DNA of 37,764 bases from Vicinamibacteria bacterium. GTDB taxonomy: Bacteria > Acidobacteriota > Vicinamibacteria > Fen-336 > JAGNNV01. A program made the translations under genes and the position numbers. Numbering within the stretch: position 1 is the first letter of the stretch; every line of letters starts with the position of its first letter. Of this stretch, positions 3,142-31,795 are shown piece after piece. The DNA is taken from contig JANLWV010000190.1 of assembly GCA_031364765.1 (NCBI GenBank), forward strand, positions 1 to 37,764, in the 5' to 3' direction. The notes under the pieces were generated by a model. That model was not told the DNA's origin and did no database searches. It saw only the letters and a list, made by a program, of their open reading frames with translations.

Positions 3142-6100
3142 ATGCTCGCTGACGTCTTCATCCGCCGGCCCGTCCTGTCGACGGTCTGCTCCCTGCTGAT
3201 CATTCTCGCGGGCGCGGTGTCGATTCCGACCCTGCCGATCGCCCGCTACCCTGACCTCGCACCGCCCTCGCTCACCGTCTCCGCGGTCTACACCGGCGCC
3301 AACGCCCAGTCGGTGGAGAGCGCGGTGACCACACCACTCGAGCAGGCGATCAATGGCGTCGAGGGGATGACCTACATCACCTCGTCCAGCACCAACAGCG
3401 GCTTCTCCACCATCAACGTCACGTTCGACATCGACCGGGATATTGACCTCGCCGCCGTGGACGTGCAGAACCGCGTGAACCAGGCGCTCGGCCGGATGCC
3501 CGCCGATGTCCGAACCAACGGCATCTCGGTATTCAAGAACACCTCGGGTTGGATGGGCGGCATGGGCTTCTTTTCGAAGGACAACCGCTACAGCAGCCAG
3601 TTCATCAGCAACTACATCGATCTGTACGTGCGGGACGCGGTCAAACGCGTCAAGGGCGTGGGCGACGTCATCATCTTCGGCGAACGCAAGTTCGCCATGC
3701 GGCTGTGGCTCGACCCGGCGAAGCTCGCGGGGCGGCGCCTCACCGCGGGCGACGTGCTCGGCGCCCTGCGTGAACAGAACGTGCAGGTGGCGGCGGGCGC
3801 TTTGGGCGACGCCCCGTCATCGCCCCAACAGATGTTCACCATCAGCGTGCGGGCCATGGGCCGGCTGTCGGAAGCGAGTCAGTTCGAGGACGTCGTGATC
3901 AAGGCGGGCAAAGGTGGCGCGCTGGTGCGGGTCAAGGATGTCGGCCGGGTCGAACTGGGCGCCGAGACCTACTCGTCCAATCTCCGGTTCCTGGGCCTGG
4001 AGGCGCAGGGTATCGGCGTCACTCTCCTCCCCTCCGCCAACGCCATCGACGTGTTCCAGGGCGTCATGGCGGAGATGGCCGTGCTCGAGAAGAGTTTTCC
4101 GCCCGGGCTCGAATGGCGCATGGCGTTCGACAACGTCGTGGTCGTGCGGGAGTCCATCATTGAGGTGGTGAAGACTCTCGCCGAGGCGATCGCCCTGGTC
4201 ATCCTGGTGATGTTCCTGTTTCTCCAGAACTGGCGGAGCACCATCATTCCGGCCATCACCCTTCCGGTTTCGCTGATCGGCACCTTCTCGTTCATCAAGC
4301 TGTTCGGTTTCTCCATCAACACCCTGACCCTTTTCGGCATCGTTCTCGCCACCGGGATCGTGGTCGACGACGCCATCGTGGTGATCGAGAATATCGAACG
4401 CCACATGAGGGAGTTCAAGAAGTCGGCGCATCGGGCGTCGATCGACGCCATGCGCGAGGTCTTTGGCGCGGTGGTCGTGATTGGCCTTGTCCTGGTGGCG
4501 GTCTTCGTTCCGGTGGCTTTCTTCCCCGGTGTCACCGGCCGGCTGTATCAGCAGTTCTCCCTGACCATCGCCTTCGCCGTGGTTCTGTCGGTGTTCAACG
4601 CCGTCACCCTGACTCCCGCCCTTTCCGCCCTGCTTCTCGACAAGGAGAGTCACACCCACGGCCGGTTCTTCACCGCCTTCAACCGCGTGGTGGATAACGG
4701 TACTTCGGCTTACTCGCGCCTGGTCCGAAGGGTCCTTGGACTTCGCGCGGCCATGATCGTGCTGTTCGTGGGCGGCCTCCTGGCCACCTGGGGCGTCTAT
4801 CGCGTGGTTCCGTCGGCTTTCGTTCCCGACGAAGACGAGGGTTACTTCATGGTCCTGGTGCAAGCGCCTGCCGGCGCGTCGCTCGAGTACTCCACGAACA
4901 TCGCCAAAAAGGCCGAGGAGATCATCACAAAGGATCCCGACGTCCTGGCCGCGTTCTCGGTCATGGGCTTCAGCTTTTCGGGGGCCGCGCCCAACAACGG
5001 GATGATCTTTGCGCCGCTCAAGGAATACGCCCAGCGCCGAGGGCCTGAGCACTCGCTCAGCGCCGTCATCAACCGTCTGCGTGGTCCTCTGTTCGGCATT
5101 CCGGGCGCCTTCATCGTCGCCTTCCCCCCTCCGGCGATTCAGGGTCTGGGCGCCTTCGCCGGGTTCCAGTTCGAGCTGCTCGATCAGACCGGCGCCGAAA
5201 GCGTAGACGGCCTGGCCGCCGCGATGAACGGCTTGATCGGAGAGGCGAGCCAGGGCGCCCAGGTGCAGGGCCTCTTCAGCAGCTTCAGCGCAGCCGATCC
5301 GCAGTTGCTCGTCGACATCGACCGCGACAAGGCGCGCAGTCTCGGCCTGCCGCTTTCGGAAGTCACCGACGCCCTTCAGGTGTTCCTGGGGTCGCAGTAC
5401 GTGAATGACTTCGACTTCAACAACCGGGCCTACCGCGTCTATGTCCAGGCCGACCAGCAATTCCGGTCGAGCCCCTCCTCCCTCCGGCAGCTCTACGCGC
5501 GTGCTTCGAGCGGCGACATGGTCTCGCTGGACTCGGTGGTCAAGGTCAAGGAGACGACGGCTCCCTCGGTCATCAGCCATTTCAACCTGTTCCGCTCCGT
5601 GTCGATCTCCGGCAGCCCCGGTCCCGGCGTGAGCTCGGGTCAGGCCCTGGTCGCGATGGAGGATCTGGCGAGCAAGCTCCCGACCGGTTTCACGTTTGCC
5701 TGGTCCGGGCAGTCGCTCGAGGAGATCAAGGCGGGCGCTCAGGCCGGCGCCATCTTCGCCTTGAGCGTCATCCTCGTCTACCTCGTCCTGGCCGCCCAGT
5801 ACGAATCGTTCGTGCTGCCTTTTATCATTCTGCTCGGCGTGCCGCTCGCCATCTTCGGCGCCCTGTCGGCTCAGTGGGTCCGCGGTTTCACCAACGATGT
5901 TTTCTGCCAGGTGGGCCTGATCCTTCTGGTTGGACTCGCCGCGAAGAACTCGATTCTGATCGTGGAATTCGCGGAGCAGCTGCGCGAGCGCGGTCTGTCG
6001 ATTGTGGACGCCGCGGTGGAGTCTTCGCGTATCCGCCTCCGTCCGATCCTGATGACATCGTTCGCGTTCATTCTCGGCGTGCTGCCCCTGGCCTTCGCGA

Positions 6101-7575
6101 CGGGTGCTGGTGCTTCGGGGCGCAACTCGATCGGCACCACCGTCGCGGGCGGCATGCTGGCCTCCACCTTTTTGTCCATCGTTTTCATTCCCGTTCTCTA
6201 CGTGGTCATTCGGACACTCGCCCCCGGACGCGGGCGAAGGGCGCATGACGAGGGTGAAGGTGAAGGCGGGACCGGCACGCTGAGTTCGGGCAGGCCCGGC
6301 CCGGGAACCGCCGGCGTCGCGATCCTGATCATCCTCTCGCTGATAGCACCCGCGGGTGCTCAGACCGCGGTGGAATCGCCCAAGGAGTCCCTCAGCTTTG
6401 AACAAGCGGTCGCCCGCGCGGTCGAGAAGAACCCAACGGTGGCGATCGCCGCCACCAACATCCTGCGTTCGCAGGGCCTGCTCCAGCAGCTCCGCTCGTC
6501 TGGTCTTCCGCGCGTGACCGCGAGCATCAACAACACGACGCTCGACCAGGCTTTTGGCTTTGATGCCGGGATTGTCCAGCCCAAAAACCAGTCGGTGTTT
6601 GGCCTGTCCGTGTCGGTGCCGATTCTGGCCGCCGCGCAGTGGGCGGCGAACGCGCAGGCGAAGGATCGGGTCGAAGTCTCCCGCCTGTCGAGCGCCGATA
6701 TCCGCCGGCAGGTGGCGGTGAGTGCCGCCGCCGCGTACCTCTCCGTCATCACCCAGAGGCGTCTCGTGCAGATCGCCGAACGCTCCCTCGACACGGCGCG
6801 CGCCCAGTTCGACTACAACCGGACGCGCCGCGAGGGCGGCCTGGGCAGCCGGCTGAATGAACTGAGGTCCGGCCAGGTGGTCTCGACTGACGAGACCCTG
6901 GTCGAGACCTTCAAGCTGGGCCTGCGCCGATCGCAGGAAGCGCTCGGCATCCTGCTCGGCGAAGACGGGCCGGTCGACGCGACCGGCGAGCCCACGTTCG
7001 ATATCTCGTCCGCCGACATCACCGACGACTGGATGTCCTCCCGCTCGGACATGCTCCTGCTCGCGGCGGAGCAGCGCGCCGCCCAGAACGTCCTCAAAGG
7101 CAGCTCGAAAGACTGGTGGCCCACGGTCAAGATGTCGTTCGATCCGCAGTACCTGACGCCTTCCGGTCTCTTTCAGCGCTCGAAGAGCTGGCGCCTCTCG
7201 TTCGAACTCTCGCAAACTCTCTACAACGGCGGCGAGCGCGGCGGCGTCCAGCTTCAGCGTCAGGCGAACGCCCAGGCGGCGGACTTCGCTATCGCCCAGC
7301 GCCAGATTCAGGCCCGGGCGGAGATCCGGAATGCGCGCACCGCGGTTGAGGCCTATGGCCGCGTGCTGCTGAGCGCTCGGCTCGCCGCCGAACAGGCGAA
7401 CGAAGTTCTGAAGATCACGATCACCGCGTTCGACGCGGGCGCCTCCACCAATATCGAAGTCATCGAGGCCCAGCGCTCCGCTCGCGACGTTGAAACCGCC
7501 CTCGCACAATCGGAGGATGCGCTGCGACAGGCCCAGTTCGACCTGCTGGTGGCCCTCGGCCGGTTCCCGAAATAG
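3142..7575 (+). CDS. RND (AcrB/HAE1-type) inner-membrane efflux pump fused in frame to a TolC-like outer-membrane factor
   Basis: Single 1477-codon ORF. Residues 1 to ~1023 have the canonical RND layout (N-terminal TM, two large periplasmic loops, 12-TM pattern, motifs such as VVDDAIVVIENIERH and AAKNSILIVEFA). Residues ~1074-1477 look like an OEP/TolC family protein (LSFEQAVARAVEKNPTV..., two tandem coiled-coil/beta repeats, C-terminal QAQFDLLVALG). Between them is a charged linker and a hydrophobic stretch VAILIILSLIAPAGA (6316-6360). There is no stop and no in-frame ATG/GTG/TTG at the junction. Confidence 0.88.
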   Translation: MLADVFIRRPVLSTVCSLLIILAGAVSIPTLPIARYPDLAPPSLTVSAVYTGANAQSVESAVTTPLEQAINGVEGMTYITSSSTNSGFSTINVTFDIDRDIDLAAVDVQNRVNQALGRMPADVRTNGISVFKNTSGWMGGMGFFSKDNRYSSQFISNYIDLYVRDAVKRVKGVGDVIIFGERKFAMRLWLDPAKLAGRRLTAGDVLGALREQNVQVAAGALGDAPSSPQQMFTISVRAMGRLSEASQFEDVVIKAGKGGALVRVKDVGRVELGAETYSSNLRFLGLEAQGIGVTLLPSANAIDVFQGVMAEMAVLEKSFPPGLEWRMAFDNVVVVRESIIEVVKTLAEAIALVILVMFLFLQNWRSTIIPAITLPVSLIGTFSFIKLFGFSINTLTLFGIVLATGIVVDDAIVVIENIERHMREFKKSAHRASIDAMREVFGAVVVIGLVLVAVFVPVAFFPGVTGRLYQQFSLTIAFAVVLSVFNAVTLTPALSALLLDKESHTHGRFFTAFNRVVDNGTSAYSRLVRRVLGLRAAMIVLFVGGLLATWGVYRVVPSAFVPDEDEGYFMVLVQAPAGASLEYSTNIAKKAEEIITKDPDVLAAFSVMGFSFSGAAPNNGMIFAPLKEYAQRRGPEHSLSAVINRLRGPLFGIPGAFIVAFPPPAIQGLGAFAGFQFELLDQTGAESVDGLAAAMNGLIGEASQGAQVQGLFSSFSAADPQLLVDIDRDKARSLGLPLSEVTDALQVFLGSQYVNDFDFNNRAYRVYVQADQQFRSSPSSLRQLYARASSGDMVSLDSVVKVKETTAPSVISHFNLFRSVSISGSPGPGVSSGQALVAMEDLASKLPTGFTFAWSGQSLEEIKAGAQAGAIFALSVILVYLVLAAQYESFVLPFIILLGVPLAIFGALSAQWVRGFTNDVFCQVGLILLVGLAAKNSILIVEFAEQLRERGLSIVDAAVESSRIRLRPILMTSFAFILGVLPLAFATGAGASGRNSIGTTVAGGMLASTFLSIVFIPVLYVVIRTLAPGRGRRAHDEGEGEGGTGTLSSGRPGPGTAGVAILIILSLIAPAGAQTAVESPKESLSFEQAVARAVEKNPTVAIAATNILRSQGLLQQLRSSGLPRVTASINNTTLDQAFGFDAGIVQPKNQSVFGLSVSVPILAAAQWAANAQAKDRVEVSRLSSADIRRQVAVSAAAAYLSVITQRRLVQIAERSLDTARAQFDYNRTRREGGLGSRLNELRSGQVVSTDETLVETFKLGLRRSQEALGILLGEDGPVDATGEPTFDISSADITDDWMSSRSDMLLLAAEQRAAQNVLKGSSKDWWPTVKMSFDPQYLTPSGLFQRSKSWRLSFELSQTLYNGGERGGVQLQRQANAQAADFAIAQRQIQARAEIRNARTAVEAYGRVLLSARLAAEQANEVLKITITAFDAGASTNIEVIEAQRSARDVETALAQSEDALRQAQFDLLVALGRFPK

Positions 7576-7671: not shown

Positions 7672-8562
7672 ATGGAACCAAAAAACGCCGGCGACTTCGA
7701 TCAGGGCGTGTATGACCTCTTCGACAAATTCGTTCACGGCGACATCGATCGACGAGGCTTCATAGATGGCGCGGGCAAGTTCAGCGTTGCCGGCATGACC
7801 GGCGGCATGATCCTTGACGCCCTCACGCCTCGCTTCGCGGAGGCGCAGGTGGTCGCCAAGGACGACAAGCGGATCGTGACGGAGTTCGTCGAGTACCCCT
7901 CTCCGCAGGGCAATGTGAAGATGCGCGGATACCTGGTGCGGCCCGCCGACAAGAAGGGAAAGCTGCCCGGAGTTCTCGTGATTCACGAGAACCGCGGCCT
8001 CAACCCCCACATCGAGGACATCGCGCGTCGAGTCGCTCTCGAGGGCTACATGGCCTTCGCTCCCGACGCGCTCTTCCCCCTCGGCGGCTATCCCGACGAC
8101 GAGGACAAGGCTCGCGAACTGTTTCCGAAGCTCGAGCAGCCGAAGACGCGCGAAGACTTCGTGGCCGCGGTCGCCTGGCTCAAGGGCCGCGGCGACTGCA
8201 CGGGCAAAGTCGCGGCCGTCGGTTTCTGTTACGGCGGCGGCATTGCCAACATGCTGGCCACTCGTATTCCAGATCTCGCCGGCGCGGTCCCTTTCTACGG
8301 TGGGGCGCCGCCCGCTGACGACGTCAAGAGCATCAAGTGCCCGATGCTCATCCATCACGCTGAGAAAGACGAGCGACTGGTCGCCGCCTGGCCGGCCTAC
8401 GAGGAAGCTCTCAAGGCGAACAAAGTTCGATACGAGGGTTTCATCTACCCGGGCGCCCAGCACGGCTTCAACAACGACACCACGCCGCGCTATGACAAGG
8501 CCGCCGCTGATCTGGCCTGGAAGCGGACGGTCGAGTTCTTCCAGAAGAACCTGAAGGGCTAG
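7672..8562 (+). CDS. dienelactone hydrolase family protein with Tat-type signal
   Basis: The ORF is open from 7612. ATG 7672 is preceded by GGAG. A twin-arginine motif DRRGFIDGAG is followed by a hydrophobic stretch and AEA-Q. DLH fold motifs are present (VLVIHENRGL, nucleophile motif GFCYGG, C-terminal HGF). Confidence 0.85.
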   Translation: MEPKNAGDFDQGVYDLFDKFVHGDIDRRGFIDGAGKFSVAGMTGGMILDALTPRFAEAQVVAKDDKRIVTEFVEYPSPQGNVKMRGYLVRPADKKGKLPGVLVIHENRGLNPHIEDIARRVALEGYMAFAPDALFPLGGYPDDEDKARELFPKLEQPKTREDFVAAVAWLKGRGDCTGKVAAVGFCYGGGIANMLATRIPDLAGAVPFYGGAPPADDVKSIKCPMLIHHAEKDERLVAAWPAYEEALKANKVRYEGFIYPGAQHGFNNDTTPRYDKAAADLAWKRTVEFFQKNLKG

Positions 8563-20110: not shown

Positions 20111-21067
20111 TTGAACCTTGGAGAAGCCGTCACCAGAGTGCGTCTGAAGGCCGGGTGGATCCAACTCGATCGCCTCAGCCTGATCAAGGTCTTCGGTCCT
20201 CAGCGGGTGAAGTTCCTCCACAGCCTGCTCTCGAACGACATCGCCGGACTCGTGCCCGGAAACAGCCGGCTGGCTGCTCTCATGAATCTCAAGGGCCAGC
20301 AGGTCGCCTGGATGCGTGTCCTGGCCGAAGCCGACGCTCTCTTCTGCGAGACGTCTTCGGCGGTGCGCGAGACCGTGGTGGAGACCTTCATCCACTACAA
20401 GGTGGGAGCGCCGGTTCGGTTCGAGAAGCCGGACGCGAGGGTTTTCGGCCTCCTCGGACCCGCGGCGCCTGACGCCATCCTTGCCCTCGGCTTCGAGGCG
20501 CCCCCGGTGAGAGCCGAGACTTTCTCGACCGCTCAGGGCTCCTTCGGCGTGCTGCGGGCGAGTCGCGGCCTCGACATGCCGGCGTCGGGATTCACGCTTC
20601 ACGTCGGGACGACCGCGGCGGCGGCGGTCGAGGAGAAGCTCCGCTCTCTGCTCGGCGAGCCCTTAAGCCAGCCGACACTCGAAACGCTTCGCGTCGAGGA
20701 AGGCATCCCGTGGCACGGAATCGACGTGAAGGAAGAGAACCTCCTGCACGAGACGGGTCAACTCGAGGTTTACCACTCGCCCTCGAAGGGGTGTTATCTG
20801 GGCCAGGAAGTTGTGGCGCGGCTCGAGGGTCGAGGGGGCAACGTCAACAAGAGGTTCCGTGGCTTGAGGGGCTCGCGGCTGGCATCGGCTGGAGACGAGA
20901 TCATGGCCGACGAGAAGGTCATCGGTCGAGTGACCAGCGCCGGCCTTTCGCCGGAGTTCGGCGCCATCGCGATGGGGTTTGTGCATCGCTCGCATGCCGA
21001 AGCGGGAACACGGGTGAGCCTTGCCGGACTTGAGGCGGAGATCGTGTCGCTTCCCTTCAAAGCCTGA
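20111..21067 (+). CDS. ygfZ: YgfZ/GcvT-family folate-binding protein (Fe-S cluster assembly/repair factor)
   Basis: 318-aa ORF (TTG start) with an aminomethyltransferase-like fold and the YgfZ signature KGCYLGQE. Its stop TGA overlaps the ATG of the next gene by 1 nt. Confidence 0.82.
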   Translation: MNLGEAVTRVRLKAGWIQLDRLSLIKVFGPQRVKFLHSLLSNDIAGLVPGNSRLAALMNLKGQQVAWMRVLAEADALFCETSSAVRETVVETFIHYKVGAPVRFEKPDARVFGLLGPAAPDAILALGFEAPPVRAETFSTAQGSFGVLRASRGLDMPASGFTLHVGTTAAAAVEEKLRSLLGEPLSQPTLETLRVEEGIPWHGIDVKEENLLHETGQLEVYHSPSKGCYLGQEVVARLEGRGGNVNKRFRGLRGSRLASAGDEIMADEKVIGRVTSAGLSPEFGAIAMGFVHRSHAEAGTRVSLAGLEAEIVSLPFKA

Positions 21068-22314
21068 TGCCGACAGGAGCGGCGGCGCGCAAGCTGAAGT
21101 GGACGCTCTTCGGAGCGCAGGCGATGGGATCGGCCGGCTTCCTCGTGGCCGCAACCGTCACACCGATTGTGGGCGCGGAACTCTCGGGCCGGCCTTCGTT
21201 CGCGGGGGTTCCGACGGCTTTTTACTGGGCGGGCGGTGCTCTGGCGACACTCGTCTGGGGCCGCCTGATGGATCCCATCGGACGTCGAAAGACGCTCTCG
21301 CTGGGCCTCCTGGTGGGCGTCTTTGGCGCCATCATCGCGTCCCTATTCGTGGTCCGGCATTCGTTCCCGGGCTTCGTCCTCGGACTCGCTCTCATGGGGG
21401 CGGCCAATTCCGCCCTCCAACTCGCGAGGTTCATGGCGGGCGAGGTTCACCGAGTTGAGGAGCGGGGGCGGGCCATTTCGACGGTGGTTCTCGGCGGAAC
21501 CGTCGGAGCGGTTCTCGGCCCGGCGCTGGTGGCCCCCATGTCGGCGCTGGCGGCCGCCTTTAGAGGGCCGCCCCTCGCCGGCCCCTATGCGGCAAGCGCC
21601 GCGTTTTTCTCCATCGGTGCTGTGGTCGTGGCCGTCCTCCTGCGGCCGGACCCTCGCGATCTGGCCCGGGAGGTTCAGGGCGCAACCGCGGCCCCTCTGA
21701 CCGCGATTCGGCCGGTGCGGGAGATCCTGAGCGATCGTGGGATTCAGATTGCCGGTCTCACCATGGCCCTGTCGCAGCTCGTCATGGTCATGCTGATGGT
21801 CATCACTTCCCTGCACATGTCGCACCACCATCACGCGCTTTCGAGCATCGCGGCGGTCATGTCGTCTCATGTCTTCGGGATGTACGCGTTCTCGGTGGTG
21901 TCCGGACGCTTTGCCGACAGGTGGGGAAGGGGCCCGCTGATCGGGGTCGGGGCCCTGGTTCTCGTCGCTTCCTGTTTGACGGCGACGATCTCCACGGACG
22001 TGGCGGCGCTCGCCTTCGCTCTCTTCCTTCTGGGACTTGGCTGGAACTTCTGCTACGTGGGCGGTTCGACGCTTCTCTCGGACAGCCTGACCCAGGGTGA
22101 GCGGGCGCGGATTCAGAGCATCAATGACTTCGTGCTGACCAGTCTCGCCGGCGCGGGAAGCGCGCTGTCGGGTTTCGTCTTCTCCACAGTCGGCTACGCG
22201 ATGATGGGGTACGTGAGCGCATTTGTGTCACTCGTCCTCGTCTGGTTGAGTGCCCAGGTCCATAAACACGGTGACGCACCGAGAATGCCGGGGCGCCCGT
22301 ATCGCAAGGCGTGA
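21067..22314 (+). CDS. MFS transporter
   Basis: 415-aa ORF with ~12 hydrophobic segments and an MFS motif A-like loop (GRLMDPIGRRKT, and RFADRWGRG in the second half). Confidence 0.88.
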   Translation: MPTGAAARKLKWTLFGAQAMGSAGFLVAATVTPIVGAELSGRPSFAGVPTAFYWAGGALATLVWGRLMDPIGRRKTLSLGLLVGVFGAIIASLFVVRHSFPGFVLGLALMGAANSALQLARFMAGEVHRVEERGRAISTVVLGGTVGAVLGPALVAPMSALAAAFRGPPLAGPYAASAAFFSIGAVVVAVLLRPDPRDLAREVQGATAAPLTAIRPVREILSDRGIQIAGLTMALSQLVMVMLMVITSLHMSHHHHALSSIAAVMSSHVFGMYAFSVVSGRFADRWGRGPLIGVGALVLVASCLTATISTDVAALAFALFLLGLGWNFCYVGGSTLLSDSLTQGERARIQSINDFVLTSLAGAGSALSGFVFSTVGYAMMGYVSAFVSLVLVWLSAQVHKHGDAPRMPGRPYRKA

Positions 22315-22460
22315 GGAGCGGCGCATAGAGGGGCTTATGCAACCGACGAGCCACACACGGGATGCTTGGGCGTTCGAATGCCACCGCATTTGTGGATCGG
22401 GGCACTAAGCCGCAGGGTGTCGAGACGCGCGGCGTTGTAAGGCAACCCCGAGGGTCGGTC

Positions 22461-25331: not shown

Positions 25332-27098
25332 ATGACCGACGTGATCATGCCGCAGATGGGCGAATCCATCGCGGAAGGCACCGTCACAAAGTGGCTCAAA
25401 AAGGTCGGCGACGCGGTCAAACGGGATGAACCGCTCTTTGAGATATCCACCGACAAAGTCGACGCGGAGATTCCGGCGCCCATTGCCGGCGTGCTCACGG
25501 AGATCCTGATTCAGCCGGGCACCACGGTCGAAGTCGGCAGCGTGGTGGGAAGAATCGGCGGCGCCGGCGCTGCGGTCGCGTCCCCGGCTCCGACGGCGGC
25601 CGCCCCGGCTGCCCGTCCCCAGACACCCCCGGCCGTCCCGGCCACGGCTCCGATTCCCACATACGCACCCGCTCCGCCTAAACCTCCGGTCGTGGCCGCG
25701 GCGCCTGTAGCTCCGTTTCCCGCGCCCGCCCCCGCTCCGCCTAAGCCTCCGGTCGTGGCCGCGGCGCCTGCAGCTCTGTTTCCCGCGCCCGCACCCGCTC
25801 CACCGAAACTTCCCGCCGTTGCTGCAGCCCCCGCTGCCGCGCCAGCCGACGACAGTTCTTCGGCTGTCAACTCCGTTGCCGAGCCCTCTCGCGAAGGTAT
25901 GACTTCCAGCGAGCTCCGAATGGCGCGGAGTTCTCCGGTCGTCCGGAAGATTGCGCTCGAGTACGGAGTCGACATCAACGAGGTACGCGGAACGGGTCTC
26001 GGTGGCCGGGTCACTCGCGAAGACATCCTGTCCTATGTTGAGACGCGGACGCACGCCACGATCCGCCAAGACGCGCCGGCGGCGGCGCCCGCGGCCGCCG
26101 CTTCCCATGCACCTCCGCCCCCCGTGGCCGCGCGCACGCCGGAAGCCCCGCCTCCCGTCCCGGCCGTCGCCCCTCCTCCCGTCCCGGTCGTAGCCCCGGT
26201 CCCGGTCCCGGCAGCAGCCCCTCCTCCCGTCCCGGCCGCAGCCACGCTTCCGGTCCGAGCCGTAGCCCCACCCCCGGTTCCCAGAGTTCCCCCGGTGGCT
26301 CCGCCCCCGATGCCCGCCCTCCGTTCGGCCGCAGTGGCGATCGGCGTGCCGGACGCGCCGCCATCGACAAACACTGGGCAAACCCCGGCGCCCAGGTCCA
26401 CCGGGCCGCGAGTGGACGTGGTCCCGATGTCGCCCATCCGGAAGAAGACGGCCGACCACATGGTCCTCTCGAAGCGGACCTCGGCTCATGTCTCGACGGT
26501 CTGGGAAGTCGACATGACCCAGGTGGCCATGCTTCGGGCGAAGTACAAGCCAGCCTACCTGGAGCGCAGCAACGTGAATCTCACGTATACGCCGTTCATC
26601 GTGAAGGCGGCGACCGATGCCCTCAAGATATTCAAGGTCCTCAACGCGAGTGTGGAAGGCGACTCCATCGTCTACCGCAGGGACATCAATATCGGCATAG
26701 CCGTGGCCCTCGACTGGGGCCTCATTGTGCCGGTGATCTCCGCAGCGGACGAGAAGAACATCCTCGGTCTCGCCCGGGCGGTGAACGATCTTGGTGAACG
26801 GGCGCGCACCAAGAAACTAAGAGTCGAGGAAGTCCAGGGTGGGACCTTCACGATCACGAATCCGGGAGTCTTTGGTTCCCTTTTCGGCACGCCCATCATC
26901 TCTCAGCCGCAGGTTGCCATCCTCGGCGTGGGCACCATAGAGAAGCGTCCGGTGGTTCGTGAAGACGCCATCGCCATTCGGACCATGGCCTACTTCTGTC
27001 TGACCTTCGACCATCGCATCGTGGACGGATCGGAAGCCGACAAGTTCATGGCCCACTTCAAGAACAGCCTCCAGAACTTCGACGAATCGGCACTCTAG
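25332..27098 (+). CDS. dihydrolipoamide acyltransferase (E2) of the 2-oxoacid dehydrogenase complex, with unusually long repetitive Pro/Ala linkers
   Basis: ATG 25332 is preceded by GAGG. Lipoyl domain (MPQMGESIAEGTVTKWLKKVGD...EISTDKVDAEIPAP), E3/E1-binding domain (SSPVVRKIALEYGVDINEVRGTGLGGRVTREDI) and catalytic domain with DHRIVDG. The ORF is open from 25254, but the N-terminal homology starts at 25332. Confidence 0.92.
   Translation: MTDVIMPQMGESIAEGTVTKWLKKVGDAVKRDEPLFEISTDKVDAEIPAPIAGVLTEILIQPGTTVEVGSVVGRIGGAGAAVASPAPTAAAPAARPQTPPAVPATAPIPTYAPAPPKPPVVAAAPVAPFPAPAPAPPKPPVVAAAPAALFPAPAPAPPKLPAVAAAPAAAPADDSSSAVNSVAEPSREGMTSSELRMARSSPVVRKIALEYGVDINEVRGTGLGGRVTREDILSYVETRTHATIRQDAPAAAPAAAASHAPPPPVAARTPEAPPPVPAVAPPPVPVVAPVPVPAAAPPPVPAAATLPVRAVAPPPVPRVPPVAPPPMPALRSAAVAIGVPDAPPSTNTGQTPAPRSTGPRVDVVPMSPIRKKTADHMVLSKRTSAHVSTVWEVDMTQVAMLRAKYKPAYLERSNVNLTYTPFIVKAATDALKIFKVLNASVEGDSIVYRRDINIGIAVALDWGLIVPVISAADEKNILGLARAVNDLGERARTKKLRVEEVQGGTFTITNPGVFGSLFGTPIISQPQVAILGVGTIEKRPVVREDAIAIRTMAYFCLTFDHRIVDGSEADKFMAHFKNSLQNFDESAL
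25688..25850 (+). repeat. 63-bp (21-codon) tandem repeat, ~2.6 copies, inside E2 linker 1
   Basis: Units start at 25688, 25751 and 25814. Units 1 and 2 differ at 4 of 63 positions by my alignment. They encode PAPPKPPVVAAAPxAxFPAPA. Confidence 0.85.
26145..26288 (+). repeat. degenerate 24-bp (8-codon, APPPVPxx) tandem repeat inside E2 linker 2
   Basis: GCCCC(T/G)CCTCCCGTCCCGG-type units at 26145, 26169, 26193 and 26217, with more degenerate units following. Confidence 0.6.
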
Positions 27099-28232: not shown

Positions 28233-28523
28233 ATGGTTGAGATCGAAGACAAACTCCTCACCCACATCGCGACCCTGGCGCGACTTTCCCTCTCGAAGGA
28301 GGAAACCCGGTCGCTCGCCCAGGACCTCCGAGAGATCCTGAAGTATGCGGAGTCGCTCGAGGCCATCGACCTCGTGGGTGTGCCACCGATGAGCCATGGA
28401 ACCGAAGGCGAACGCTTCCGGCCCGACGAGGCGAAACACGATTTGACGCGTGATGACGCGCTTCGGAATGCTCCCGACAAAGAAGCGGGCCTGTTCCGCG
28501 TCCCCCAGGTGCTTGGCGGATGA
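28233..28523 (+). CDS. gatC: Asp-tRNA(Asn)/Glu-tRNA(Gln) amidotransferase subunit C
   Basis: 96-aa ORF with a GatC-typical sequence ([13 protein letters not shown]...[24 protein letters not shown]). ATGA overlap with gatA. Confidence 0.92.
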
Positions 28524-29989
28524 GCGCCCTCACGTCCATGGGCGTGGGCGAGCTCGCGGCGGCGATCAGAGGAAAGAAGGCTTCGGCGAGCGAGGTCGTG
28601 GAGGCGCATCTTTCGCGCATCGCCAAGAAGGATGGCGGGATCGGAGCGTTTCTAGCCCTCTCCGACGACGCGGCTCGGGCGGAGGCGAGAACCATCGACG
28701 CGCGGCTCGCTCAAGGCGAAGACCTCGGACCGCTGGCCGGCGTGCCCATCGCGGTCAAGGATGTGATGCATGTCCGCGGACTCCCCACGACCTGCGGTTC
28801 AAAGATTCTCAAGGGCTTCCAGCCGCCCTATGAAGCGACGGCGATCACGAGACTGAAGAGCGCGGGCGCCATCGTTCTCGGGAAACTCAACATGGATGAG
28901 TTCGCGATGGGTTCCTCCAACGAGAACAGCGCCTTTGGGCCGGTTCGGAATCCCTGGGACGTGACGCGGGTGCCCGGAGGGTCGTCGGGAGGGTCGGCGG
29001 CGGCGGTCTCCGCAGGCTTCGCCGCCCTGGCTTTAGGGTCGGATACCGGCGGATCGATTCGGCAGCCGGCGGCTTTTTGCGGTGTCGTCGGTCTCAAGCC
29101 CACCTACGGTCGCGTCAGTCGATATGGCCTGGTCGCGTTTGCGTCCTCGCTCGACCAGATTGGTCCTCTGACAAGGTCCTGCGGTGACGCGGCCCTGGCG
29201 CTGTCGGTCATCGCCGGGCAGGACGTGCACGACGCTACGAGCAGTCCGCGAGCCACGGACGACTACGGTGCTTCGCTGTCTCAACCGACAAGGGGACTCC
29301 GAGTGGGCGTCCCCCGCGCCTTCCTCAAAACCGGGGTCGACGCCGGCGTCCTTGCGGAGTTCGACCGGACGATCGCCGCGCTCCAGGCGGACGGAGCGGA
29401 GGTTGTCGACATAGCGCTGCCGAACGCGCCCCACGCCATTGCCACCTACTACCTGGTGGCCACGGCGGAGGCCTCGTCGAATCTCGCGAGATTTGACGGC
29501 GTGAGGTACGGTCTGCGGGTCGATTCCGAGGCCGCCCGCGCGACCCTCAAGGACATGTACGGAGAAACCCGGGATGCGGGGTTTGGCCCCGAGGTCAAGC
29601 GCCGGATCATTCTCGGGACTTTCGTCCTCTCCTCGGGCTACTACGATGCCTACTATCTCCGGGCTCAAAAGGTCCGGACCCTCATCCGTCGCGACTTCGA
29701 GACCGCGTTTGCCTCGTGTGACGTGATCGCAACGCCCACCACACCGTCGACCGCGTTCAAGCTCGGAGAGAAGACGGCGAACCCGCTTGAGATGTACCTC
29801 GCGGATGTCTTCACGGTACCCGCCAATCTCGCTGGCGTGCCGGGGATCTCGGTGCCGTGCGGCGTCTCGAATAGCCTTCCGGTAGGGATGCAGTTCGTGG
29901 GTCCGGCATTCGCGGAAGCCACACTCCTCCGAGCAGGTGGCGCGGTGGAACGGCTGATGGGCGTCGGCGCGAACCGTCCGCCGCTCTAG
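28520..29989 (+). CDS. gatA: Asp-tRNA(Asn)/Glu-tRNA(Gln) amidotransferase subunit A
   Basis: 489-aa ORF with the amidase signature ([42 protein letters not shown]) and typical GatA N- and C-termini. Confidence 0.95.
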
Positions 29990-30195
29990 TGTCCCGCCTC
30001 GTAAGTACGCGACACATGGGAGCGCCGATGCATCCCGGATCGCTGCGTTGCTCGTGGCCCAAGGCCAGGCTTGCGCTTCCCCAAGGGGAAGCTTCGCGCT
30101 CGTTGCATATGCTGGATATGCGGCCTCCTCGACGCCTTGCCCTCCAGGCGCCTCGACACTCGCATGTGCCACGTACCTACGAGGCGGGACACTAG
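29986..30195. repeat. 210-bp intergenic palindromic (MITE-like / long-hairpin) element bounded by CTAG
   Basis: 29986-30028 pairs with 30195-30153. The first 18 bp are perfect. Across 43 positions there are 37 Watson-Crick pairs, 5 A.C/C.A and 1 G.G. A central perfect hairpin GCTTCCCC-aa-GGGGAAGC lies at 30075-30092. The termini CTAG contain the stop codons of gatA (29987-29989) and of the minus-strand DUF2062 gene (30192-30194). Confidence 0.8.
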
Positions 30196-30650
30196 CCGCC
30201 AGCCTGGGCGTCTTCGGTCTTCCCTTTCAACCGCTGGGCCCGGGCCTCCAGGAACTTACGGCACAAAACGTAAGCGGGTGCGGCGACGACGAGACCCAGC
30301 ACCGTGTTCCCCAGCAAAATCGGCCAAAAGAGCGTGCTCAGCGTGGAGCTTAGAGCTCCGATCCCCTGACTCCAGTCGACGGCCTTCAGGTCCCCCGCGT
30401 CGACTCCGAGCAGCAACGCTCCAATGAAAGTACCAAAGGCATAACAGGGCGCCAGGGCCCACGCGTTGATCCAGGCCCCCGCGAGAACGGCCAAGCGATT
30501 CAGTCGGAAGAGGAAGGCGATGGCAATCGCTATCAGGGTATGGAGACCGAGCCAAGGCGAGAAGGCGATGAAAACCCCGACGCCGAACGCGAGTGCGGTG
30601 CGGTGCGGTGGGTCCTTCAGATGAAGAAGACTCTTCAGGGCGTCATGCAT
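30192..30650 (-). CDS. DUF2062 domain-containing membrane protein
   Basis: 152-aa ORF with a family-like N-terminus (PPHRTALAFGVGVFIAFSPWLGLHTLIAIAIAFLFRLNR) and 3-4 TM segments. Confidence 0.78.
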   Translation of the reverse strand: MHDALKSLLHLKDPPHRTALAFGVGVFIAFSPWLGLHTLIAIAIAFLFRLNRLAVLAGAWINAWALAPCYAFGTFIGALLLGVDAGDLKAVDWSQGIGALSSTLSTLFWPILLGNTVLGLVVAAPAYVLCRKFLEARAQRLKGKTEDAQAGG

Positions 30651-30703: not shown

Positions 30704-31795
30704 TTAGGTGACCGAGGAGACGTTCGAGCGCTGGGCCTCTTTGAAACCGAAGTGGTCGTAGCCCTGGGACTTGAGCGGCTCGATCCACTCGCCCACCTGG
30801 ATGGAAACCACCGGCGCTCCCACGACGAACTGACCGATGACCGTGATCGGCAGGTCCCAGACGAACGCCATATCCCTCACCGCATCGATGCTTTCGGGTG
30901 AAACCGCCATCAGCAGCTGGTAGTCCTCGCCCCCATGAAGCGCGAGCGGCAGAGGATCTCCTCCCCGGGCGCGTTCGATCATGGCGACCGCGGGATCCAC
31001 CGGAACCGCCAGGGGGTCGATGAGGGCGCCGATCGAGTTCTCCGCGCAAAGCCGGATCAGATCGATCGAGAGGCCATCGGAGAGATCCATCATGGCGCGC
31101 ACCGTGCCGGAGATTTCAGACATGGCGCGAGCAAAGGCGAGAGGCGGCGTTGGATCCAGCTGAGCGCGGACGCAGCGGGCGAGGGGAGCTTCGGAAGACG
31201 GCGTCCAGATTCCGGTATCAATGACCACGCCGTCGTCGGCGAGCCGCACACCCTCGCGAAGCAGCCGCAGTCCCTCGGCCGCGGCGCCCAGGCCGCCGGT
31301 GATAACGACCAGGTCGCCCACCTGCGCCCCCTGACGGAGAATCGGCCGATCGCCCGTGCCGAGAAGCGTGACGGCAATCGTGATAGGCCCGGTCGTGGCG
31401 GATAGGTTCCCGCCCACGATCCCCACGCCCACTTCGGCCGCGCGTTCGATGAGGCCCTCGTAGAGCCGGTCAAAAAAATCGACGGAGCAGGACGGCGGAA
31501 GACAAAGACTGATGAGGGCGTAACGAGGGACGCCCGACATGGCGCCGATGTCCGAGAGATTGACCGAAAGAGCCTTGCGCCCCAGAAGCCGCGCGGGGGT
31601 CAGGGCGCGATCAAAGTGAATTCCCTCCACCAAGGCGTCCGTGGTGAGAAGCGAGGCCGAGGTTGTATCGACAAGGGCGCAATCATCGCCAATTCCGACC
31701 TTCACACCCGGTGTTGCGGCGATACGGGAGCGCAAACGCGCGATGAGGGCACGCTCCCCCACGGAGGAAACAGTTTCGGTGTTTTCGTCGCTCAA
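30704..31795 (-). CDS. thiL: thiamine-monophosphate kinase
   Basis: 363-aa ORF with an AIR-synthase-related fold and ThiL motifs (GERALIARL, GIGDDCALV, TTDALVEGIHF, GGNLS, DLSDGL). Confidence 0.9.
   Translation of the reverse strand: MSDENTETVSSVGERALIARLRSRIAATPGVKVGIGDDCALVDTTSASLLTTDALVEGIHFDRALTPARLLGRKALSVNLSDIGAMSGVPRYALISLCLPPSCSVDFFDRLYEGLIERAAEVGVGIVGGNLSATTGPITIAVTLLGTGDRPILRQGAQVGDLVVITGGLGAAAEGLRLLREGVRLADDGVVIDTGIWTPSSEAPLARCVRAQLDPTPPLAFARAMSEISGTVRAMMDLSDGLSIDLIRLCAENSIGALIDPLAVPVDPAVAMIERARGGDPLPLALHGGEDYQLLMAVSPESIDAVRDMAFVWDLPITVIGQFVVGAPVVSIQVGEWIEPLKSQGYDHFGFKEAQRSNVSSVT

Follow-up and report, generated by a model that had tools for sequence, protein, structure and literature searches.

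A palindromic, probably mobile repeat family bounded by CTAG at gene ends in Vicinamibacteria-type Acidobacteriota

Structure of the palindrome between gatA and the DUF2062 gene

The window analyzed here is the whole 37,764-nt stretch of contig JANLWV010000190.1 from a Vicinamibacteria bacterium, and all coordinates refer to it. [quoted passage not shown] To the left lies gatA (28520–29989, plus strand), encoding Glu-tRNA(Gln) amidotransferase subunit A (Pfam Amidase, E 4e-159, 530 bits), with GatC upstream (28233–28523). To the right lies a DUF2062 gene (30192–30650, minus strand; Pfam DUF2062, E 1.4e-27), located downstream of a ThiL-like gene (30704–31795, minus strand). The left CTAG (29986–29989, plus strand) contains the gatA stop codon, TAG at 29987–29989, and the right CTAG (30192–30195, minus strand) contains the TAG stop of the DUF2062 gene, seen on the plus strand as CTA at 30192–30194. 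A preliminary description of this DNA had listed the palindrome, its CTAG bounds, the two stops, an inner hairpin, five A.C pairs of the plus strand that become G.U on the minus strand, and one G.G mismatch; all of these are present in the sequence.

The inverted-repeat arms (29986–30031 and 30150–30195) are 46 nt long and 85% complementary. The window minus strand, which carries the G.U (in DNA, G.T) wobbles and the asymmetric form of the core, is referred to below as the sense strand of the element. The terminal part and outer stem of the left arm (29990–30019) pair with those of the right arm (30162–30191). The first ~7 nt past the left CTAG (TGTCCCG; with the CTAG, 5'-CTAGTGTCCCG) are conserved in the family, and the rest of the left arm varies with compensatory changes. 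Further inside is the conserved core, the left half of which (GAGCGCCGATGCATCCCGGATCGCTGCGTTGCTCG, 30020–30054) contains the 19-mer used below for the metagenome scan. It pairs with the right half (..CCTCCTCGACGCCTTGCCCTCCAGGCGCCTCGACACTC, 30122–30161) through bulges and three conserved wobble positions (alignment columns 42/193, 44/191 and 51/184), which are G.U on the minus strand. The apex is formed by a conserved hairpin, GCATAT-GCTGG-ATATGC (30105–30121), which covaries in the family. Next to it this copy, like a few others, has a 45-nt insert (30055–30099) that is absent from the common ~165-nt form; metagenome contigs bypass it and connect 30054 directly to 30100. The insert holds two small hairpins, 30056–30066 and 30075–30092, the second with a perfect 8-bp stem (30075–30082/30085–30092). 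The same 45 nt also occur alone: contigs from sludge and soil RNA runs (X24 and X23) match 30053/30055–30100/30102 at 98–100% with unrelated flanks, and the insert is possibly a small hairpin module that moves on its own.

No coding capacity was found in the element, its only open reading frames (ORFs) being two mirror-image 68-codon artefacts of the palindrome. Folding of both strands, which the preliminary description had recommended, gave RNA structures far beyond those of shuffled sequences. The minimum free energy was −133.8 kcal/mol (z −11.2) for the minus strand and −114.5 kcal/mol (z −8.0) for the plus strand, and none of 200 shuffles folded as well as the element. Single-stranded DNA parameters kept this ranking (−68.2 for the minus strand vs. 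−60.8 for the plus strand).

Copies of the family and their CTAG target

The preliminary description, which called for copies to be counted, had suggested that the palindrome is a mobile element inserted at CTAG, and this was supported: copies with sharp CTAG boundaries occur at more than 20 unrelated loci, and syntenic relatives lack the element. A scan of a genome collection (596 Gb) used the 15-mer of that description, a pattern so short that nearly all of the 120 loci found were chance matches. The only real copy among them (L005) is 80% identical to the window element and lies in reverse orientation in a metagenome-assembled genome of Acidobacteriota, in a different context, with an unrelated 444-codon ORF on one side and a carboxyltransferase gene on the other; the similarity of the alignment vanishes precisely at the CTAGs. 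The scan of soil and sediment metagenomes with the exact core 19-mer, a stretch that is conserved by construction in copies recovered this way, gave 38 loci, about 21 of them true copies. The element is therefore not unique, with ~22 further copies at unrelated loci in addition to a second copy in the window. A covariance model (R1) built from 15 full copies scored the window element at 167.5 bits on the minus strand vs. 67.2 bits on the plus strand.

In eight metagenomes (the sediment metagenomes of the window itself and four others for locus L134), contig depth was 45–270 over the element vs. 4–8 in the flanks, a 10–50-fold excess; for the window's own metagenomes the flank depth was about 5–8. 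Contigs matching the terminus alone had differing flanks, each beginning right at CTAG. The CTAG was intact at 32 of 39 scored ends (19 of 21 left ends), and the termini CTAGTGTCCCG and CGGGACACTAG were conserved among copies. Copy length varied from 164 to 222 bp, most commonly 164–168 nt; the window copy (210 nt) and the copies at L005, L129 and L139 carry differing extra hairpins at one apical site.

Several loci showed derived arrangements. At L134 and L130 a short hairpin unit adjoins the full element with one CTAG in common, as expected when a later insertion uses a CTAG rebuilt by an earlier one. Short hairpin units ending in GGGACACTAG adjoin a full element, the CTAG of which they share, at L130 (596–650), L134 (2360–2418), L005 (6408–6423) and L132 (2157–2176). 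The motif TAG(C/G)AGTCCGTGG(T/C)GAAAG was seen beside CTAG or TTAG sites at three loci and may mark the terminus of a further repeat family that targets CTAG. At L128 (1350–1424) there is a 75-nt internal-deletion derivative with the foot fused straight to the 3' half. The copy at L129 (8731–8921) combines arms of two different subfamilies, with a badly matched outer stem, which points to recombination between copies.

No match came from two viral-contig scans that used core patterns or from a plasmid search. Against Rfam, the window gave only tRNA-Ala at the gathering threshold, and the region 29900–30280 gave only noise at E up to 10. Short R1 matches in Streptomyces and other taxa were rejected as family members, being generic hairpins. 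Pieces of the family were present in metatranscriptome assemblies, the contigs of which are unstranded, of low depth, and may include DNA. No description of the repeat family was found in Rfam or in the literature searched, and we consider it a previously undescribed family of small mobile repeats of a familiar kind, similar to MITEs, ERIC and Correia elements.

The CTAG target accounts for the position of the element relative to stop codons. The window has 11 CTAG sites, about a tenth of the 124 that its base composition predicts; a Markov estimate gives 28. The element's ends account for two of these sites, and several others are stops of Pfam-confirmed genes. Since CTAG is rare and largely consists of C followed by a TAG stop, a CTAG-specific element lands at gene ends and rebuilds TAG on both sides, and the apparent supply of both stop codons by the element is a consequence of this preference. 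In at least 14 cases the TAG of a long ORF lies inside an element-end CTAG, on either side of the element; for the genes with the adjoining stop, the strand read is sense in 7 cases and antisense in 7–9. As a separate observation on window composition, the tetranucleotides TTAA and TATA are also low, and GATC and TCGA are 2.5–3-fold over-represented.

Relatives were found via the DUF2062 protein, and some of them are named Vicinamibacteria in database records. In L161/L162 and in L163 the order ThiL-DUF2062 / GatA-GatC-DUF2752-LplA is kept without the element. L161/L162 (87% protein identity) have the TGA stop of DUF2062, 17 nt, and then an unoccupied CTAG, an empty site, that serves as the gatA stop; in L163 the spacer is 21 nt long and the stop is TAA. 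That description also proposed that a single ancestral CTAG had ended both genes. In silico excision of the element with one TA leaves CCGCTCTAGCCGCC, in which one CTAG indeed ends both, and the two genes may well have overlapped in this way before the insertion; no relative shows the overlap directly, the syntenic ones having 17–21-nt spacers and TGA stops for DUF2062. Other convergent genes with overlapping stops, said to occur elsewhere in the window, were not established. Two minus-strand ORFs sharing a CTAG at 8559 and 27095 were considered as real convergent genes and rejected: both lack a Pfam match, and at 27095 the ORF also overlaps the LplA/B gene.

The second window copy (22247–22408, sense strand plus) is divergent and decayed, with ends TGAG...CTAA, and was detected by R1 over the full model length (63.2 bits, E 1.1e-11). 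It sits between a gene for a major facilitator superfamily (MFS) transporter and a convergent gene for a HAD hydrolase (both by Pfam). The MFS ORF (21067–22314) enters the copy by 68 nt, so that its last 22 codons and stop are encoded by the element. The two window copies lie 8 kb apart in opposite orientations. Elsewhere in the window, at 3142–7575, one 1477-codon ORF contains a full AcrB-type RND transporter (residues 3–1024) and an outer-membrane efflux protein (OEP) domain (~1300–1473); it is an unusual fusion, or possibly a stop or frameshift was missed in the assembly.

Covariation, conservation and the strand of wobble pairs

The palindromic structure is maintained by compensatory change. 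In the consensus structure 93.4% of the pair-by-copy cells are paired, compared to 25–45% when the partners are slid. Changes on both sides were seen in 26 of 59 pairs vs. 13.0 ± 2.1 in shuffles, and none of 500 shuffles reached the observed values. Helix 1 contributes most of these (22 of its 32 pairs have changes on both sides), and in helix 4, the apical hairpin, 4 of 6 pairs do. From the outside to the inside the unit consists of a conserved foot, a stem of ~25 bp, a near-invariant bulged core of ~2 x 35 nt, and the small covarying apical hairpin. In the ~25-bp stem the sequence differs by up to half between copies with pairing kept. Only ~10 nt of each terminus are conserved, and columns 11–38 vary in a compensatory manner among copies with nearly identical cores. 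This inverse conservation, higher in the core than at the termini, is one of the less ordinary features of the family.

The wobble pairs are distributed unevenly between the strands. Summed over all pairs and copies, G.U cells number 70 for the sense strand (minus in the window) vs. 12 for the antisense strand, and 27 vs. 7 when only the outer stem is counted. The three core wobble positions are common to 6, 11 and 15 of 15 copies. Wobble columns shared by at least two copies are sense in 12 cases vs. 1, and those confined to a single copy are not biased by strand (13 vs. 10). Of 15 copies, 11 fold better as the sense strand and two as the antisense strand.

On the consensus structure, the window copy has seven G.U pairs on the minus strand, none on the plus strand, and one G.G; the seven include the five positions of the preliminary description. 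Those five had been read as a hint of selection for RNA structure in the 3' untranslated region of the thiL-DUF2062 transcript, with a chance of about 1 in 16 under neutrality. Four of them (30171, 30169, 30158 and 30156) recur in copies at other loci, and so were inherited with the element rather than arising in five independent events, and the estimate does not apply. The asymmetry itself is real and extends to the whole family, further copies being far from evenly split between strands; selection for this particular transcript is not supported, given the inherited wobbles and the unbiased orientation of the copies. In this small sample, the split between shared and private wobbles is what one would expect if multiplying lineages must fold on the sense strand and resident copies decay without regard to strand. 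Folding of the sense strand would thus matter during propagation and apparently not for the resident copy at this locus.

Mobilization and alternative explanations

The element is small, within the roughly 70–300 bp of MITEs, and non-coding, has terminal inverted repeats, is found at many loci with sharp ends, and shows the CTAG (TA) duplication together with an empty site, which are features of a MITE. According to the mechanism that we propose, the element would have inserted into the CTAG at the end of gatA. Most simply, the central TA would be duplicated, giving C-TA-[GTGTCCC...GGGACAC]-TA-G with a CTAG at each end and leaving both convergent genes with a TAG stop; the two copies of the duplication would then be TA 29987–29988 and TA 30193–30194. 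Avoidance of CTAG in the genome would steer the element to gene ends, where insertion would do little harm. The mobile unit would comprise the conserved ~10-nt foot (CTAGTGTCCC), the ~25-bp stem in which only pairing is kept, the conserved bulged core, and an apex tolerant of additional hairpins. The mobilizing enzyme may recognize the folded single strand (DNA or RNA) of the sense orientation during propagation. Duplication of TA rather than of CTAG, and the single-stranded step, are inferred.

Small palindromic repeats of several kinds are known from other bacteria. ERIC/IRU elements of enterobacteria, with the related YPAL, are non-coding imperfect palindromes of ~130 bp located in transcribed intergenic regions beside gene ends. 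Longer ERIC variants arise by insertions at fixed internal sites, and hairpin stability differs between the strands; we know of no transposase partner of ERIC. The present family resembles ERIC/IRU in its palindrome, its location at gene ends, its variants with internal inserts and its strand-differing stability. It has no sequence similarity to them, however, and differs in its host (Acidobacteriota), its length (~165 nt), its strict CTAG target, and the combination of a bulged core with a freely covarying outer stem. The Correia/NEMIS repeats of Neisseria are likewise small and palindromic, duplicate TA, are often co-transcribed and form a long hairpin. In Correia elements the conserved terminal repeats span 26 bp and an IHF site is present; in this family conservation covers only ~10 nt of the termini, and CTAG is the target. 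Among MITEs of the IS630/Tc1-mariner type is RUP of Streptococcus pneumoniae. Both ERIC and Correia are named among bacterial MITEs (PMC3733652). By definition, a REP hairpin carries at one of its ends a GTAG (or CGTC) tag that stays unpaired (PMC3733652). The present copies share with REP/REPIN, which are presumed to be handled as single-stranded DNA, an extragenic hairpin mostly located after genes or between convergent genes and maintained pairing; they lack the GTAG/CGTC tag, end in CTAGs that pair with each other, and are larger, with one long stem. In behavior, therefore, ERIC/IRU and Correia are closest, in target IS630, and some features are REPIN-like, with no sequence in common with any of them.

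As for the enzyme, one candidate that we regard tentatively as possible is a DDE transposase of the IS630/Tc1-mariner type, acting by cut-and-paste of double-stranded DNA at TA within CTAG; the hairpin would then be a by-product of long terminal inverted repeats. The junctions C-TA-[G...C]-TA-G fit exactly what IS630 makes at CTAG, and IS630 is described as preferring TA within 5'-CTAG-3' with duplication of TA (Tenzen and Ohtsubo, 1991, as cited in PMC2170065). Two further observations fit: the odd-ended copies (L125 and the second window copy) agree better with T-TA-A and one mutation than with a 4-bp direct repeat, and opposite orientations of two copies 8 kb apart are expected for a double-stranded mechanism. 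The conservation pattern is the reverse of that predicted for a transposase-bound repeat, however: the ~20–30 bp of conserved terminal repeat that characterize IS630/Tc1-mariner elements are replaced by ~10 conserved nucleotides, with up to half of positions 12–38 differing despite near-identical cores. In addition, a double-stranded mechanism does not explain the 12:1 strand bias of shared wobbles. The short conserved terminus, the free subterminal stem and the strand bias agree better with an enzyme that reads a folded single strand. No full-length element, insertion sequence or transposase with these ends, a search for which had been advised earlier, turned up in the window or the 1.08 Mb of DNA examined.

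A rather doubtful second candidate is an HUH tyrosine transposase of the RAYT/"TIRYT" type that moves a folded single DNA strand, as for REPINs, and inserts it beside CTAG as its own cleavage site. Strand-specific wobbles, a stem that is free in sequence with pairing kept, a bulged and conserved core like that of structure-recognized hairpins, and the better folding of the minus strand as single-stranded DNA all agree with it. Di Nocera et al. described RAYT-like "TIRYT" genes, a distinct acidobacterial group among them, with long inverted-repeat flanks, some of which share GGGGWSAS and form repeat families (PMC3733652). This motif resembles the GGGACAC ends of the present family: the element ends CGGGACAC match it at 7 of 8 positions and the L134 mini-unit GGGGACAC at all 8. 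The match is short, however, and is a lead taken from that paper; there is no GTAG or CGTC tag, and the arms themselves are not REP-like hairpins. RayT-like genes were searched for with a consensus used as bait only, which returned thousands of matches without taxon labels, with the family confirmed by Pfam PF01797 and by names. No RayT-like gene was found in the DNA examined, and two such genes that were inspected had no flanking repeats. The opposite orientations of the window copies within 8 kb are weak evidence against insertion strictly confined to one replication strand. The rest of the probability falls to an enzyme that is neither DDE/IS630-like nor an HUH single-strand transposase.

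The strict use of CTAG and stop codons, the inverse conservation, and the strand bias limited to shared wobbles leave some room, although not much, for fold-dependent mobilization. In its full form this idea is unlikely: not a usual insertion sequence in decay but a mobile element recognized by its fold, with a bulged core and foot (CTAGTGTCC) and a stem of free sequence, of which one strand must fold for copying. If true, it would mean that an enzyme working on single-stranded DNA or RNA, of the HUH type or another, mobilizes hairpins at CTAG in an undescribed way, with a built-in "safe landing" rule of insertion only at stop codons that are then rebuilt.

Several points weigh against a MITE-like element propagated in the proposed way. 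No autonomous partner or transposase is present in the window or in the 1.08 Mb, and contigs aligned on the terminus alone in search of a parent insertion sequence gave only other insertion sites and MITE copies. The ~10-nt conserved terminus is short for a binding site of an IS630/Tc1-type transposase. None of the contigs in the eight metagenomes skips the element, which would be the empty allele of this exact locus. The closest DUF2062 relative (L160, 93% identity) has a different downstream region, indicating that the gene junction is rearranged among close relatives; at L160 2986–3137 the DUF2062 gene has a longer C-terminal tail and no gatA downstream. With a palindromic target, duplication of TA and of CTAG gives the same junction, as does insertion beside a CTAG. 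The contrast between shared and private wobbles is based on 15 sequences. Finally, conservation of the core is partly an ascertainment effect of the search with an exact core 19-mer; the opposite core arm, which lies outside the selected 19-mer, is still ~95% conserved, and since this unselected arm is equally conserved, the contrast between core and outer stem is real.

It appears improbable that the host retains the hairpin as RNA, to stabilize 3' ends or to terminate in both directions the convergent transcripts of gatCA and thiL-DUF2062. The structure is very stable on both strands and lies exactly between convergent genes both here and at 22247–22408, pieces of its family are present in the metatranscriptome assemblies, and ERIC, Correia and REP repeats are known to affect mRNA stability (background in PMC3733652). 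Against this, no T run follows the stem on either strand (flanks CTAGCCGCC and, for the opposite strand, CTAGAGCGG), and the region 29800–30400 has no terminator-like site, which weighs against the bidirectional terminator of the preliminary description; a scan around the element found no promoter-like site either. The orientation relative to the adjoining gene is unbiased (7 vs. 7–9), the wobbles were inherited and not acquired at this locus, relatives do with a spacer of 17–21 nt, and the transcript contigs have the limits given above. With these results and the lack of an Rfam match, an RNA role specific to the thiL-DUF2062 transcript is not supported, and side effects on host transcripts are plausible. 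A free-standing structured non-coding RNA gene, which the strong covariation and conserved core might suggest, or a chance palindromic spacer can hardly be correct, as the hairpin fills the whole unit and leaves no room for a promoter, Rfam gave no match even at E up to 10, and copies bounded by target CTAGs at unrelated loci exclude uniqueness.

For the MITE-like repeat family, comparison of shared and private wobbles offers a cheap test of whether selection on structure acts while copies propagate or at the locus where they reside. The element also explains assembly breaks at such sites in Acidobacteriota that are abundant in soil and sediment. A CTAG-specific element in a CTAG-poor genome is steered to gene ends and does little damage there, with the stop codon rebuilt on both sides. 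Both stop codons now lie in the foot of a hairpin of ~100 bp, with possible effects on the termination of translation, the stability of 3' ends and convergent transcription.

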